19,305 bases of DNA from a virus (Duplodnaviria; Heunggongvirae; Uroviricota; Caudoviricetes), in the IMG/VR virus record IMGVR_UViG_3300029828_000038, positions 1 to 19,305 of that record, one strand, 5' to 3'. Positions 13,291-19,305 of the stretch are shown piece by piece. A model generated the notes under the pieces. It saw nothing but the letters and a program-made list of their open reading frames with translations, was not told the origin of the DNA and did no database searches. Numbering within the stretch: the stretch's first letter is position 1; the number at the start of each line of letters is the position of its first letter. The translations under genes and the position numbers were made by a program.

Positions 13291-16200
13291 ATGAGTGTGG
13301 CGACATTACGTGAACTGATTATTAAAATCTCGGCAAATTCCCGGTCATTCCAGTCAGAGATCTCCCGGGCTTCGCGTATGGGGCAGGATTACTACCGTAC
13401 CATGCAGAACGGAGGCCGGCAGTCCGCTGCTGCATCCCGTGAAATGCGGCGTGCACTGGCAGAAGTGACGGATCAGATAAATACAGCTAAATCTTCGGCA
13501 CTGAATATGGCGGGGGCATTTGCCGGAGCTTTTGCTACCGGTCATCTTATTTCTCTCGCCGATGAGTGGAATTCAGTAAATGCCCGTCTGAAGCAGGCTT
13601 CACAGTCCAGTGATGATTTTCAGGTATCACAACGTGAATTAATGGCAATCAGCCAGAGAACGGGAACGGCGTTTTCTGATAACGCCAGCCTTTTTGCCCG
13701 CTCTGCAGCTTCCATGCGGGAGTATGGCTACAGTTCTGAGGAGGTACTGAAAGTCACCGAGGCGATCTCCACGGGCCTGAAATTATCCGGTGCCAGTACA
13801 GCAGAAGCCAGTTCGGTGATCACGCAGTTCAGTCAGGCACTGGCGCAGGGAGTGCTGCGCGGTGAAGAATTTAACTCTGTGAATGAGAACGGCGATCGTG
13901 TTATTCGTGCGCTGGCTGCGGGAATGGGTGTTGCCCGTAAGGATCTGAAGGCCATGGCGGATAACGGAAAACTGACCGCCGATAAGGTTGTTCCTGCACT
14001 GATTAGTCAGCTTGGGGCGTTGCGTGATGAATATGCAGCAATGCCTGATACTGTTTCATCCTCTGCAACCAAAGTTGAAAACGCCTTTATGGCCTGGGTT
14101 GGTGGTGCGAACGAGGCAAGCGGAGTGACAAAGACACTCACCGGGGTGTTGAATGGTGTTGCAGACAATATTGATACCGTGGCTGCTGCAGCTGGCGCAC
14201 TGGTTGCCGTCGGGGTAGCCCGATATTTTGGCAATATGGCGTCGTCTGCTGGATCTGCAACTGCCGGATTAATTACTGCAGCCAGAAACGAAGTGGCTCT
14301 TGCTGAAGCGCAACTTCGGGGGACACAGATAGCAACCGCCAGGGCGCGTGCGGCGGTTTATCGTGCGCAACAGGCGGTTGTTGCTGCTCGCGGTACCGAA
14401 AGGCAGGCCGCAGCAGAAGCGAAGCTGACAGCTGCCCAGGCGTCACTTACCCGTAATATTGCGGCCAGAACAGCGGCACAGACAACGCTGAATACTGTCA
14501 CGTCAGTGGGGAGTCGTCTGTTAAGTGGTGCGCTGGGGTTGGTTGGTGGTGTGCCGGGACTCGTCATGCTGGGGGCGACGGCCTGGTACACGATGTATCA
14601 GAATCAGGAGCAGGCCAGAGAATCTGCACGCCAGTATGCCGCAACAATCGACGAAATTCGCCAGAAAACGTCGGCAATGTCGCTTCCTGAAGCGTCAGAT
14701 AATGAGGAAAAGACGCGGCAGGCACTTGATGAGCAAAACAGGTTAATTGACGAGCAGAAAAGTAAGATTAAATCCTTACAGGAAAAAATTGCTGGCTATC
14801 AGTATGTGCTGGCAAACCCGGGCTGGACAACCGATAACGGTTTTATGATTAACCACATGACGTCGGTAAAAACTGTCACAGAAGGGCTTGCAGAAGCAAC
14901 AAATCAACTGGCAGTTGAACAGTCCCGTCTCACACAAATGCAGGGCAAAGCGCAATCCATTCAGGATGTGCTTGCCGGGCTGGAGGAGCGACGGGTGGCG
15001 TTGATCCGTCAACAGGCCGCGGAACAAAACAAAGCGTATCAGTCCCTGTTGATCATGAATGGGCAGCATACCGAGTTTAATCGCCTTCTCGGGCTCGGTA
15101 ATGAATTACTTCAGCAGCGACAGGGGCTGGTGAATGTACCGTTACGGCTACCACAGGCAACCCTGGATGATAAACAGCAGACCGCACTGAATAACAGCGA
15201 GCGCGAACTGGCTCTGTCCCGCCTGAAGGGGGAAGCCCGTGAGCGTGCCCGCCTGGGTTATGCTGCGGATGATCTCGGCTTTGTGGGAGAGGCGTATCAG
15301 ACAGCCAGACAGAATTATATCAATAACTCACTGGATGCCTGGCGAAATAACCAGGCAAATAAACCCAAAGCGCATAAAAAGACCGAAGCGGAAAAAACAG
15401 AAGATATTTATAAACGGCTGATTAAACAGCAAAAAGAACAAATAGCACTGGCAGGGCAGAATACTGAACTGGCTAAGATGAAATATCAGGTCAGTCAGGG
15501 CGAATTATCAACCCTGTCAGAAGCGCAGAAAAAAACGCTTTTGCAGAATGCAGCACTCATCGACCAGAAAAAGATTCGTGAGCAGCTTGCTGCGTATGAG
15601 AGCAGTCTGGCGGACAGTAATGCCAGTGCCCGGGCATCTGACGACGCGCAGTTGCTGGGATATGGTGAAGGCTCACGGATGCGTGAACGACTCCAGGAAA
15701 TGTGGAGTATCCGGCAGACGTTTGAGCAGAAAAATAACGAACTGCTGAGACAGTATCAGGCCGGAGAAATTGAAGAAGCCCTGTGGAAACAGGAGAAAGA
15801 ACTGAATAAAAAATATCTGGAAGAGCGTCTCAGCGATCAGCAGGATTATTATGCAAAGGCCGATGCTTTACGTAATAACTGGAATGCCGGACTCCAGGAA
15901 GGACTGACCAACTGGGCAGACAGTGCCACCGATTATGCTTCACAGGCGGCAGATGCTGTCGTTTCCACGATGGACGGGCTGGTATCAAATATTTCCGATG
16001 CACTGGCCGGGAATGTTGTGGAGTGGAGGAACTGGGGGAGTTCAGTTCTCCGGGAAGTTTCAAAAATTCTGATGAATGCAGCCATTGTTAACGGACTGAA
16101 ATCACTCTCCGGTGCCGGAGGGTGGCTTGGTACGGTCGGCGGATGGATTTCGGGGGCGGTGGCAAACGCAAAAGGTGGTGTTTACACATCGGCAAATCTG

Positions 16201-16524
16201 AGTGCTTACAGTAACACTATTGTGGATACACCGACGTATTTTGCTTTTGCGAAAGGTGCCGGGCTGATGGGTGAGGCCGGGCCTGAAGCTATCATGCCAC
16301 TGACACGGGCAGCGGACGGCTCTCTTGGGGTCAGAGCCATTGGCAATGTGAATGGTGGCGGTGGATTTGTTTATTCTCCCGTGTATCACATCAGCATTCA
16401 GAATCAAGGGAGCAATGGCGAGATAGATACGCGCTCAGCCAGGGGACTGGTGGATCTGATCGACAGCAGGGTTGTGTCAATTATGCAGTCATCGCGTCGG
16501 GATGGAGGATTATACAGTGCCTGA
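13291..16524 (+). CDS. Tail tape measure protein (1077 aa)
   Basis: Very long Ala/Gln-rich helical protein downstream of the G/GT chaperone. C-terminal region resembles lambda gpH (…WADSATDYASQ…, …RRDGGLYSA). Confidence 0.9.
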   Translation: MSVATLRELIIKISANSRSFQSEISRASRMGQDYYRTMQNGGRQSAAASREMRRALAEVTDQINTAKSSALNMAGAFAGAFATGHLISLADEWNSVNARLKQASQSSDDFQVSQRELMAISQRTGTAFSDNASLFARSAASMREYGYSSEEVLKVTEAISTGLKLSGASTAEASSVITQFSQALAQGVLRGEEFNSVNENGDRVIRALAAGMGVARKDLKAMADNGKLTADKVVPALISQLGALRDEYAAMPDTVSSSATKVENAFMAWVGGANEASGVTKTLTGVLNGVADNIDTVAAAAGALVAVGVARYFGNMASSAGSATAGLITAARNEVALAEAQLRGTQIATARARAAVYRAQQAVVAARGTERQAAAEAKLTAAQASLTRNIAARTAAQTTLNTVTSVGSRLLSGALGLVGGVPGLVMLGATAWYTMYQNQEQARESARQYAATIDEIRQKTSAMSLPEASDNEEKTRQALDEQNRLIDEQKSKIKSLQEKIAGYQYVLANPGWTTDNGFMINHMTSVKTVTEGLAEATNQLAVEQSRLTQMQGKAQSIQDVLAGLEERRVALIRQQAAEQNKAYQSLLIMNGQHTEFNRLLGLGNELLQQRQGLVNVPLRLPQATLDDKQQTALNNSERELALSRLKGEARERARLGYAADDLGFVGEAYQTARQNYINNSLDAWRNNQANKPKAHKKTEAEKTEDIYKRLIKQQKEQIALAGQNTELAKMKYQVSQGELSTLSEAQKKTLLQNAALIDQKKIREQLAAYESSLADSNASARASDDAQLLGYGEGSRMRERLQEMWSIRQTFEQKNNELLRQYQAGEIEEALWKQEKELNKKYLEERLSDQQDYYAKADALRNNWNAGLQEGLTNWADSATDYASQAADAVVSTMDGLVSNISDALAGNVVEWRNWGSSVLREVSKILMNAAIVNGLKSLSGAGGWLGTVGGWISGAVANAKGGVYTSANLSAYSNTIVDTPTYFAFAKGAGLMGEAGPEAIMPLTRAADGSLGVRAIGNVNGGGGFVYSPVYHISIQNQGSNGEIDTRSARGLVDLIDSRVVSIMQSSRRDGGLYSA

Positions 16525-16858
16525 GCCTGAAGTTTTTAACTGGATCCCCCGTGAGGGGATGGAGACGACACGAAAGCCATCAGTTATTACGGTAAAGTTT
16601 GGTGACGGATATGAACAGCGACGGGCTGGTGGTCTGAATGCGGATCTGAAAACGTTTAAACCGGTATTTCGTGTCACAGATGAATACTCCCGTGCCGCGC
16701 TGGACAGTTTTTTATCCCGTCATGCCGGGATTCGTGCTTTTTTGTGGCGTCCGCCAAAACACAACAGGACTGTCCGGGTTGTCTGCAGGGAGTGGAGCAT
16801 TTCGGATAATGCCATGTATACCGATTTTAACTGTACCTTTGAAGAGGTCACTCACTGA
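16517..16858 (+). CDS. M: Minor tail protein M (lambda gpM-like)
   Basis: GTG at 16517 with GGAGGA 7 nt upstream; the alternative start is ATG 16502. The product contains ...VKFGDGYEQRRAGGLNADLKTFKPVFRV...FLWRPP..., matching the lambda M signature. Its stop overlaps the L start (ATGA). Confidence 0.8.
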   Translation: MPEPEVFNWIPREGMETTRKPSVITVKFGDGYEQRRAGGLNADLKTFKPVFRVTDEYSRAALDSFLSRHAGIRAFLWRPPKHNRTVRVVCREWSISDNAMYTDFNCTFEEVTH

Positions 16859-17556
16859 TGCAGGATATACAGCAGGAAACACTCAATGAGTGCACTAAAA
16901 CGGAGCAATCCGCGCTGGTCGTGCTCTGGGAAATTGATCTGACAGAGGTCGGCGGAGATCGTTATTTCTTCTGTAATGAGCAGAACGAAAAAGGTGAAGC
17001 AGTCACCTGGCAGGGGCGGCAGTATCAGGCCTATCCCATTCAGGGAAGTGGATTTGAGATGAACGGTAAAGGAGCCAGTGCAAGGCCAACTCTGAAAGTC
17101 TCTAATCTGCACGGCATGGTCACAGGGATGGCGGAAGATCTGCAGAGTCTGGTCGGCGGAACGGTGGTCCGGCGTAAGGTTTACGCCCGTTTTCTGGATG
17201 CGGTGAACTTCGTCAACGGAAACAGCGAAGCCGATCCGGAGCAGGAGGTAATCAGCCGCTGGCGCATCGAGCAGTGCAGCGAACTGAGCGCGGTGAGTGC
17301 CTCCTTTGTACTGTCCACGCCGACGGAAACGGATGGCGCTGTTTTTCCGGGGCGCATCATGCTGGCCAACACCTGCACCTGGACCTATCGTGGTGATGAG
17401 TGTGGTTATAGCGGTCCGGCGGTCGCGGATGAATATGACCAGCCGACCTCCGATATCACGAAGGATAAATGCAGCAAATGCCTGAGTGGCTGTAAGTTTC
17501 GCAATAACGTCGGCAACTTTGGCGGCTTCCTTTCCATTAACAAACTTTCGCAGTAA
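16858..17556 (+). CDS. L: Minor tail protein L (lambda gpL-like)
   Basis: 232 aa, the same length as lambda L. MQDIQQETLNECTKTEQSALVVLWEIDLTEVGG... and the C-terminal Cys cluster (CTWTYRGDECGY...CSKCLSGC) are recognised from memory as near-identical to lambda gpL. Confidence 0.9.
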   Translation: MQDIQQETLNECTKTEQSALVVLWEIDLTEVGGDRYFFCNEQNEKGEAVTWQGRQYQAYPIQGSGFEMNGKGASARPTLKVSNLHGMVTGMAEDLQSLVGGTVVRRKVYARFLDAVNFVNGNSEADPEQEVISRWRIEQCSELSAVSASFVLSTPTETDGAVFPGRIMLANTCTWTYRGDECGYSGPAVADEYDQPTSDITKDKCSKCLSGCKFRNNVGNFGGFLSINKLSQ

Positions 17557-17560
17557 TCCC

Positions 17561-18304
17561 ATGACACAGACAGAATCAGCGATTCTGGCGCACGCCCGAC
17601 GATGTGCGCCAGCGGAGTCGTGCGGCTTCGTGGTGAGAACGCCGGAGGGGGAAAGATATTTTCCCTGCGTGAATATCTCCGGTGAGCCGGAGGCGTATTT
17701 CCGTATGTCGCCGGAAGACTGGCTGCAGGCAGAAATGCAGGGTGAGGTGGTGGCGCTGGTCCACAGCCACCCCGGTGGTCTGCCCTGGCTGAGTGAGGCC
17801 GACCGGCGGCTGCAGGTGCAGAGTGATTTGCCGTGGTGGCTGGTCTGCCGGGGGACAATTCATAAGTTCCGCTGTGTGCCGCATCTCACCGGGCGGCGCT
17901 TTGAGCACGGGGTGACGGACTGTTACACGCTGTTCCGGGATGCTTATCATCTGGCGGGGATTGAGATGCCGGATTTTCATCGCGGGGATGACTGGTGGCG
18001 TAACGGTCAGAATCTCTATCTTGACAATATGGAGGCGACGGGTTTTTACCGTGTCGCACTGACAGAGGCGCAGCCGGGCGATGTGCTGCTGTGCTGCTTT
18101 GGATCATCGGTGCCGAATCATGCCGCCATTTACTGTGGCGGCGGCGAGCTGCTGCACCATATTCCTGAACAACTGAGCAAACGAGAGAGGTACACCGACA
18201 AATGGCAGCGACGCACACACTCCCTCTGGCGTCACCAGGCATGGCACGCATCTGCCTTTACGGGGATTTACAACGATTTGGCCGCCGCATCGATCTGCGT
18301 GTGA
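17561..18304 (+). CDS. K: Tail tip assembly protein K (lambda gpK-like; MPN/JAMM plus NlpC/P60-like)
   Basis: ATG at 17561, 4 nt after the L stop. JAMM motif HSHPGGLPWLSEAD and a downstream Cys/His region. The canonical lambda K start corresponds to ATG 17705 here (MSPEDW...). The 103-nt overlap with I matches lambda. Confidence 0.75.
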   Translation: MTQTESAILAHARRCAPAESCGFVVRTPEGERYFPCVNISGEPEAYFRMSPEDWLQAEMQGEVVALVHSHPGGLPWLSEADRRLQVQSDLPWWLVCRGTIHKFRCVPHLTGRRFEHGVTDCYTLFRDAYHLAGIEMPDFHRGDDWWRNGQNLYLDNMEATGFYRVALTEAQPGDVLLCCFGSSVPNHAAIYCGGGELLHHIPEQLSKRERYTDKWQRRTHSLWRHQAWHASAFTGIYNDLAAASICV

Positions 18305-18849
18305 AAACGGGGGCCGAAGCCATCCGGGCGCTGGTCATGCAGATCCCGGCGTTTCGTCAGAAACTGAGCGACGGCTGGTATCAGGTACGCATTGCCGGGC
18401 GGGATACAGGCGAAAACGAATTATCTGCCCGTCTTAATGAGCCGCTGGCAAATGGTGCCGTGATCCACATCGTACCGCGTCTGGCGGGTGCCAAAAGTGG
18501 CGGTGTGTTTCAGGCAGTGCTGGGGGCTGCGCTGATTGCGGTGGCATGGTGGAACCCTGTGGGCTGGCTGGGTGCCGCGGCTGTATCGGGTATGTATGCA
18601 GCAGGGGCCAGTATGATCCTGGGCGGTGTGGCGCAGATGCTGGCACCGAAAGCCAGAACTCCCCGCACACAGGCAACAGATAACGGCAAACAGAACACCT
18701 ATTTTTCTTCGCTGGATAATATGGTTGCACAGGGTAATTCGCTGCCGGTGCTGTATGGCGAAATGCGCGTGGGGTCGCGGGTGGTTTCTCAGGAGATCAG
18801 CACGGCAGATGAAGGTGATGGTGGTCAGGTTGTGGTGATTGGTCGCTGA
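18202..18849 (+). CDS. I: Tail assembly protein I (lambda gpI-like)
   Basis: 215 aa. N-terminus MAATHTLPLASPGMARICLYGDLQRFGRRIDLRVKTG... and C-terminus ...GEMRVGSRVVSQEISTADEGDGGQVVVIGR match lambda I. Overlaps K by 103 nt. Confidence 0.85.
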   Translation: MAATHTLPLASPGMARICLYGDLQRFGRRIDLRVKTGAEAIRALVMQIPAFRQKLSDGWYQVRIAGRDTGENELSARLNEPLANGAVIHIVPRLAGAKSGGVFQAVLGAALIAVAWWNPVGWLGAAAVSGMYAAGASMILGGVAQMLAPKARTPRTQATDNGKQNTYFSSLDNMVAQGNSLPVLYGEMRVGSRVVSQEISTADEGDGGQVVVIGR

Positions 18850-18869: not shown

Positions 18870-18888
18870 ACCGCCCCCGGGCGGTTTT
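18870..18888 (+). terminator. Weak terminator-like hairpin between I and J
   Basis: ACCGCC-CCCG-GGCGGT (18870-18885) followed by only TTTT, so a weak terminator at best. Confidence 0.3.
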
Positions 18889-18908
18889 GTCGTTATGGAG
18901 CGTGAGAA

Positions 18909-19305
18909 ATGGGTAAAGGCAGCAGTAAGGGGCATACCCCGCGCGAAGCGAAGGACAACCTGAAGTCCACGCAGTTGCTGAGTGTGATTGATGCCATCAG
19001 TGAAGGGCCGATTGAAGGTCCGGTGGATGGATTAAAAAGCGTGCTGCTGAACAGTACGCCGGTGCTGGACACTGAGGGGAATACCAACATCTCCGGTGTC
19101 ACGGTGGTGTTCCGTGCCGGTGAGCAGGAGCAGACACCGCCGGAGGGGTTTGAATCCTCCGGCTCCGAGACGGTGCTGGGTACGGAAGTGAAATATGACA
19201 CGCCGATCACCCGGACCATCACGTCGGCAAACATCGACCGACTGCGCTTTACCTTCGGTGTGCAGGCTCTGGTGGAAACCACCTCAAAGGGGGACAGGAA
19301 TCCGT
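18909..19305 (+). CDS. J: Tail tip host-specificity protein J (lambda gpJ-like), N-terminal 132 codons; continues past the window end
   Basis: ATG at 18909, 59 nt after the I stop. Translation MGKGSSKGHTPREAKDNLKSTQLLSVIDAISEGPIEGPVDGLKSVLLNSTPVLDTEGN... matches the lambda J N-terminus. No stop before the window end, which is why it is absent from the ORF track. Confidence 0.9.
   Translation, partial: MGKGSSKGHTPREAKDNLKSTQLLSVIDAISEGPIEGPVDGLKSVLLNSTPVLDTEGNTNISGVTVVFRAGEQEQTPPEGFESSGSETVLGTEVKYDTPITRTITSANIDRLRFTFGVQALVETTSKGDRNP

Follow-up and report, generated by a model that had tools for sequence, protein, structure and literature searches.

The window, by which we mean the whole 19,305-nucleotide stretch of DNA analysed (IMG/VR virus record IMGVR_UViG_3300029828_000038), carries a lambdoid tail gene cluster in which the order L-K-I-J is evident from the list of open reading frames, from Pfam matches and from the translation of J. 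The K-type gene is located between L and I and upstream of J, the position by which members of the lambda gpK (TAPK) family are recognized. Across L-K-I the window is 94% identical in DNA sequence to positions 13971-14921 of the lambda reference record NC_001416. The features considered below are as follows.

13291..16524, + strand: tape-measure gene H, 1077 aa (ORF list)
16858..17556, + strand: gene L, minor tail/tail tip protein L, 232 aa (ORF list; Pfam Phage_tail_L, 332 bits)
17561..18304, + strand: full K-type gene, 247 codons and a stop, about 28.2 kDa (translation; Pfam; PGAP; AF2)
17561..17704, + strand: the 48 upstream codons of K, for helix 1 and the first beta-hairpin of the predicted MPN fold (profile, conservation, AF2)
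17615..17617, + strand: GAG codon of Glu19, the putative general-base glutamate of the JAMM site (found in 87 of 88 diverged homologues; equivalent to E22 of AfJAMM)
17689..17693, + strand: GGAGG, Shine-Dalgarno-like, 11 nt upstream of ATG 17705 and within the codons for P44-E45-A46 (anti-SD duplex)
17695, + strand: G absent from the lambda reference record, after nt 14266 of NC_001416 (alignment, pattern counts)
17705..17707, + strand: internal ATG (Met49), equivalent of the lambda reference K start at 14276 (alignment to NC_001416)
17762..17803, + strand: JAMM zinc-site motif H68-S69-H70-x7-S78-x2-D81 (sequence; conservation)
17891..18232, + strand: NlpC/P60 (C40) papain-like peptidase domain of K, residues 111-224 (Pfam NLPC_P60, 47.7 bits)
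within 17891..18232, + strand: candidate NlpC/P60 triad of Cys121 (TGT, 17921-17923), His187 and His199 (conservation)
18202..18849, + strand: gene I, ubiquitin-like and C-terminal tail-tip domains, overlapping the end of K by 103 nt (Pfam, ORF list)
18909..19305, + strand: start of gene J (central tail fibre), which runs off the end of the window (translation MGKGSSKGHTPREAKDNLKSTQLL...)

The window phage is a lambdoid phage or prophage other than lambda, with a tape-measure protein H of 1077 aa. Lambda H, with 853 aa, is well below this length, and from the larger protein one would expect the window phage or prophage to have a longer tail or to carry an inserted segment.

The stop codon of L (TAA, 17554-17556) is followed by TCCC and then by an ATG at 17561-17563. 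From this ATG the K frame is unbroken through a second ATG at 17705-17707 and comprises 247 codons up to the stop at 18302-18304. An earlier note on this DNA had claimed that the ATG 4 nt after the L stop opens the K frame and that it adds 48 codons to K. Direct reading of the sequence bears out both the coordinates and the count; the upstream part is exactly 48 codons long, with the translation MTQTESAILAHARRCAPAESCGFVV.... The JAMM motif HSHPGGLPWLSEAD spans H68 to D81 in the numbering of the long protein and would begin at residue 20 if translation started at 17705, close to the distance of about 20 residues from the N-terminus that had been given for the downstream start. The lambda coordinates used in the same note also match the annotation of NC_001416, where L is placed at 13429..14127 and K at 14276..14875; the 148-nt gap between these two genes corresponds to 17557-17704 of the window.

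An open run of 48 codons is insignificant when taken alone, as we estimate the chance of such a run at about 10%. What makes the upstream codons significant is the match to the domain, together with their conservation and the pattern of substitutions. Pfam finds two domains in K, JAB/MPN followed by NlpC/P60. The long K matches the Prok-JAB profile (PF14464) with 53.7 bits, with residues 3-104 covering profile positions 3-112 of 114. The short K, beginning at Met49, reaches 23.9 bits over profile positions 63-112 only and falls below the gathering cut-off of 25 bits, so a whole-domain match above the curated cut-off is obtained with the long K only. Similarly, a profile built from 88 homologues aligns with two solved MPN domains, 2kks and 2kcq, with the match beginning at profile position 3. 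As had been suggested, the upstream codons supply the N-terminal part of the MPN domain, and the profile match becomes complete once they are included. A weak match to the NCBIfam desampylase model covers K residues 3-103, and no specific K model was found in NCBIfam.

An exhaustive HMMER search recovered 2776 relatives of K. Conservation was assessed in an alignment of 88 sequences, which includes 87 full-length representatives of 33-58% identity. Glu19 is present in 87 of these 88 sequences, and this residue is the glutamate that had been predicted to lie upstream of the JAMM motif. In the same upstream segment no substitution is seen at Gly22 and Asn38, and conservation reaches at least 90% at Pro17, Cys21 and Phe47. 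Gaps make up only 2% of the alignment cells over residues 1-48, mean conservation is 0.41 for this segment versus 0.47 for the rest of K, and the N-termini of the homologues lie 0-8 residues upstream of Met1 of the window protein, with one exception. The divergent loci examined, which range from Citrobacter to Xanthomonas, all have an ATG equivalent to 17561 after the L homologue.

The nucleotide substitutions among ten sequences of 87-95% identity give a consistent picture. For codons 2-48, pN/pS amounts to 0.27 when read in the K frame and to about 1.6 when read in either of the other frames, and variable sites are distributed 9/6/22 over the three codon positions; for codons 49-247, pN/pS is 0.18. 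By this pattern, purifying selection acts on the 48 upstream codons in the K frame. The earlier note had held that the long start would be refuted by initiation at the downstream ATG only, together with a lack of conservation of the upstream codons at the protein level; the pN/pS value and the near universal presence of Glu19 indicate that such conservation exists, and the alignment of K homologues that it had proposed as a check places their N-termini near Met1 in all but one case.

The isolated 48-residue peptide also matches tail families of the PHROG collection, with E-values of 1e-22 to 1e-32. One family that matches residues 1-48 (E = 3e-32) is phrog_7305, a 76-aa family of 'unknown function'. 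Its members may be N-terminal fragments of K that were called as ORFs of their own where a genome has the frameshift of the reference or where gene calls are split.

To assess the structure of K we used an AF2 model built on the 88-sequence alignment (pLDDT 97.4, pTM 0.92). Residues 1-48 are predicted to form a helix (3-15) and two strands (21-27 and 30-36) with a pLDDT of 97-98. In Foldseek searches the top match of the model is the Pyrococcus furiosus JAMM1 deubiquitinase homologue (107 columns, rmsd 2.5 Å), and the best PDB matches are JAMM1 (5lda/5ld9) followed by AMSH, CSN5 and Rpn11; the N-terminal domain of the model thus has the features of an MPN fold. The JAMM motif is defined as E-x(n)-H-S/T-H-x7-S-x2-D (PMC300881), and in K it is complete as E19...H68-S69-H70-x7-S78-x2-D81. 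Each of its residues is invariant or at least 90% conserved among the 88 sequences, with H68, H70 and D81 being invariant and S69 and S78 at least 90% conserved. A K protein that began at Met49 would be without the catalytic glutamate and a third of the fold.

On the basis of the predicted model, the N-terminal domain would share its fold with P. furiosus JAMM1 (5lda), AfJAMM (1r5x) and the haloarchaeal desampylase. The motif spacing in AfJAMM, E22/H67/H69/S77/D80 (PMC300881), is nearly that of E19/H68/H70/S78/D81 in K. Furthermore, P. furiosus JAMM1 has been solved with its ubiquitin-like partner SAMP2, and a ubiquitin-like beta-grasp partner is a feature that K would have in common with it. 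Unlike the stand-alone JAMM enzymes, K is fused to NlpC/P60 and is encoded in a phage tail assembly operon, and its presumed substrate is a linear ubiquitin-like (Ubl) fusion within gpI rather than an isopeptide conjugate.

The C-terminal half of K matches the NLPC_P60 profile (PF00877) over residues 111-224 at 47.7 bits, above the cut-off of 23 bits, and C121, H187, H199 and H200 are at least 90% conserved. In Foldseek this half matches MepS/Spr, the E. coli C40 enzyme, with which it shares the fold and the conserved Cys and His residues. K differs from MepS/Spr in being cytoplasmic and having no signal peptide, and its role may be proteolytic processing rather than peptidoglycan hydrolysis.

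Lambda gpK (TAPK; Iyer, Burroughs & Aravind, 2006) resembles the window protein in its L-K-I-J synteny and in its combination of JAB with NlpC/P60. The K of the lambda reference (NP_040598, J02459) differs in having 199 aa, beginning at Met49. In the reference sequence the ATG that follows L (14133) is out of frame with 14276, and the difference comes down to one nucleotide. NC_001416 reads GGAGGC-TATTTCCGTATG at this site, and every other sequence in the alignment has GGAGGCGTATTTCCGTATG. The K of the reference has 199 aa because, without this G, its upstream ATG is not in the K frame. With the extra G, the stretch predicted for lambda within nt 14,200-14,300 is GGAGGCGTATTTCC, and lambda K also has 247 aa with the same N-terminus, MTQTESAILAHARRCAPAESCGFVV, aligning with the window protein over residues 1-247.

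Several observations bear on whether the shorter sequence represents the phage. Among 63 loci examined, the G-containing string occurs in 29 and the deleted string only in the NC_001416 locus. Nine contaminant lambda contigs agree with NC_001416 13371-15521 at 2151 of 2151 positions and carry one additional G after 14266, so that they are identical to the reference over the 2.15 kb compared save for this base. Likewise DE3, KT232076, PV340536 and lambda imm21 are the same as the reference over the 892-1552 nt aligned except for the extra G, and LC730321 has one extra base at the site and a length of 48,503 nt, the reference length plus one. Of 122 phage records that match the site, the G is missing in only four, J02459, NC_001416, OR974322 and OR474059. 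We considered whether the last two are independent carriers of the deletion and rejected this, as both look reference-derived: in OR974322 the coordinates of L and K and the names of the genes are those of the reference, and OR474059 is an 'UNVERIFIED', unannotated engineered strain. The lambda test data of breseq, which we take to list '14,266 +G, intergenic L/K', would agree with the extra G.

Low-coverage lambda contigs, comprising complete or partial lambda genomes, are present in assemblies labelled Neobacillus, Pseudoxanthomonas, Pseudomonas, Chromatium, Shewanella, Bradyrhizobium, Leeuwenhoekiella, Streptomyces and others (loci L007-L018, L020, L026, L028-L030, L034, L036, L039 and others in our set). 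They are almost certainly contamination with laboratory lambda DNA.

From these comparisons we infer that the 1982 lambda reference has a one-base omission, probably a sequencing error rather than a real variant of the phage stock, and that the 'canonical' lambda K of 199 residues arose as an artefact of annotation. The first in-frame ATG past the break, with GGAGG ahead of it, would then have been picked as the start of K. In the literature searched we found no statement that lambda K has a misplaced start or that the reference carries an indel at this site.

The long start is not a new finding, being the usual annotation except in the lineage of the lambda reference. PGAP assigns a 744-nt K coding sequence in E. 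coli prophages, one of which is 97.6% identical to the window in DNA sequence, and the records of phage 434 and of the re-sequenced Lambda PV340536 also carry a 744-nt K. Proteins of 247 aa from E. coli, Salmonella and Citrobacter prophages that PGAP names 'C40 family peptidase' or 'phage tail protein' (for example WP_111982108.1) have the same domains, the same start position (5 nt past the L stop) and the same length as the window K, and show no substantive difference from it. Most K protein clusters in the databases are of 242-249 aa, and four are of 199 aa. The records of DE3, HK630 and lambda imm21 retain the short K even though their DNA carries the G. The designation of the downstream start as canonical is therefore accurate for the lambda reference and the records copied from it, but it does not describe the annotation of the family. 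Within the gpK family, the K of the window is unremarkable and can be predicted correctly.

The initiation signals at the two ATGs are dissimilar. There is no recognisable Shine-Dalgarno sequence before ATG 17561, where the best anti-SD duplex has a predicted energy of 0 kcal/mol, and this ATG is located 4 nt past the L stop in an unstructured A-rich stretch. ATG 17705 is preceded at a spacing of 11 nt by GGAGG, for which the anti-SD duplex is predicted at -9.5 kcal/mol and which is annotated as a ribosome binding site in the lambda imm21 record. A 7-bp hairpin predicted at 17676-17693 (UCUCCGG-UGAG-CCGGAGG) would pair up this GGAGG. Upstream of L, gene M ends at 16858, and the M stop codon and the L start codon have one base in common (TGATG). 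The tight M/L and L/K junctions suggest translational coupling.

These signals raise the question of dual initiation in the lambda clade, in which the 247-aa K made from 17561 would be accompanied by a nested 199-aa product made from 17705 by means of GGAGG. The nested product would consist of half an MPN domain without the catalytic glutamate, plus NlpC/P60. Such a scheme would draw on the strength of the anti-SD duplex and the spacer noted above, and ATG49 and GGAGG are both present in lambda, in the window and in many close relatives. Nested products of this kind are familiar in lambda itself, as with C/Nu3 and S107/S105. Moreover, TAPK versions that have only NlpC/P60 occur in some phages (Iyer et al., PMC1779556). 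The distribution of Met49 argues against a conserved function of the second start. At position 49, Ile is found in 57 of the 88 diverged sequences, Met in 13 and Leu in 10, with Ile, Leu or Val in 71; in the 56 full-length cluster representatives of at least 69% identity, Met occurs in 26, Ile in 24 and Leu in four, with Ile, Leu or Val in 29. Replacement is seen even in an Escherichia ruysiae prophage that is 95% identical (L004, Leu) and in an E. albertii relative that is 87% identical (L027, Ile). Met49 is not, on the evidence of these alignments, a conserved start. In addition, GGAGG resides within the P-E-A coding sequence and is predicted to be shut in the 7-bp hairpin, the spacing of 11 nt is above the optimum, and a fragment begun in the middle of the MPN beta-sheet of the model would be unlikely to fold. 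We regard dual initiation as unlikely. In its most specific form, ATG 17705 with its GGAGG would be a true second start of the lambda clade that yields a nested K' (NlpC/P60 with a dead half-MPN), with the hairpin at 17676-17693 tuning the ratio of the two products, and this we consider quite improbable.

If the start at 17705 were the sole real one, the upstream codons would be an untranslated open spacer between L and K. This arrangement is the one used in the annotation of the lambda reference, DE3, HK630 and lambda imm21, and it would agree with the SD-like GGAGG before 17705 and with the four 199-aa clusters. An untranslated spacer is contradicted by the conservation of its translation, by variation that is biased to third positions with a pN/pS of 0.27, and by the presence within it of the catalytic glutamate and of invariant residues, and it also leaves unexplained why these codons complete the MPN domain both in Pfam and in the structural comparison. 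The annotation itself goes back to a 1-nt gap in one record, and an untranslated interval of 148 nt would be anomalous beside an M/L junction of the TGATG type. We reject the downstream ATG as the only start and judge it very improbable. An even earlier start, at GTG 17486 within the last part of L (272 aa, with a 71-nt overlap with L), is hardly to be credited and was likewise rejected, since the K frame, open from 17486 in the window, is closed 21 nt upstream of the ATG in close relatives (e.g. L005, L006 and L021) with no start codon between, homologue N-termini fall within 0-8 residues of Met1 with one exception, the profile matches to both Pfam and PDB set in at residue 3, and there is no good SD at a useful spacing.

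We consider it very likely that K starts at 17561, that it has complete MPN and NlpC/P60 domains, and that the short lambda K is artefactual. From the observed reading frame, domain completeness, conservation, selection, predicted fold and one-base discrepancy we propose the following for where initiation takes place, how it is coupled, what the enzyme does and what it acts on. K would be translated from ATG 17561, 4 nt past the stop codon of L, probably by coupling to L or by re-initiation after it, or else by SD-independent initiation in the unstructured A-rich leader. The 247-residue product would comprise a complete JAB/MPN+ (JAMM) metalloprotease domain (residues ~3-104) with Glu19, His68, His70, Ser78 and Asp81, followed by a putative NlpC/P60 cysteine peptidase domain (residues 111-224) with Cys121, His187 and His199.

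The protein would serve as the tail-tip assembly factor gpK and remain outside the virion, and once gpI is in the tip complex it would cut off the ubiquitin-like N-terminal domain of gpI. Lambda gpK is absent from virions (PMC10721106), and the literature on lambda describes it as needed for tail assembly. TAPK has been recognized as a combination of JAB and NlpC/P60 since 2003-2006 and was predicted to process the Ubl domain of TAPI (PMC1779556; PMC300881), and a conference report of 2025 states that the Ubl domain is cleaved from gpI by gpK (PMC12908700). For the window K, zinc binding and (iso)peptidase activity are putative, with this conference report on gpI cleavage as support. The presumed substrate of K is the product of gene I, in which the Ubl domain is found by Pfam (Lambda_tail_I, residues 14-97) and is followed by ...PRLAGAKSGG.

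The start of gene I also drew our attention. In the lambda clade, the ATG at 18202, with the SD-like sequence GAGAGAGG, adds 13 residues before the Ubl strand MARICLYGDL (window 18202-18243), and distant I homologues (L041-L050) start directly at the Ubl strand and overlap K by only 57 nt. We considered that this start might be misplaced like that of lambda K, which is probably not so in the lambda clade; the start at 18202 is probably real there because the E. albertii relative (L027) has no ATG at the position of gene I Met14. An inverted repeat rich in GC, with a run of T after it (AAACCGCCCCCGGGCGGTTTTGT), lies at 18873-18895 in the gap that separates the stop of I from the start of J. By its sequence it looks like a terminator or an RNA-stability hairpin inside the late operon.

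The annotation of the window is unaffected by these results, as modern gene callers and PGAP, across thousands of E. coli genomes, already use the upstream start. It is the K of the lambda reference (NP_040598/J02459) that is without 48 residues, including the catalytic glutamate, through one missing G. Any gpK that is cloned, mutated, modelled or searched for by mass spectrometry from the reference record would be truncated and probably non-functional. The point is timely, as the ubiquitin-like processing of gpI by gpK is under study and as ubiquitin-like systems with which bacteria defend themselves by targeting the central tail fibre have been described.
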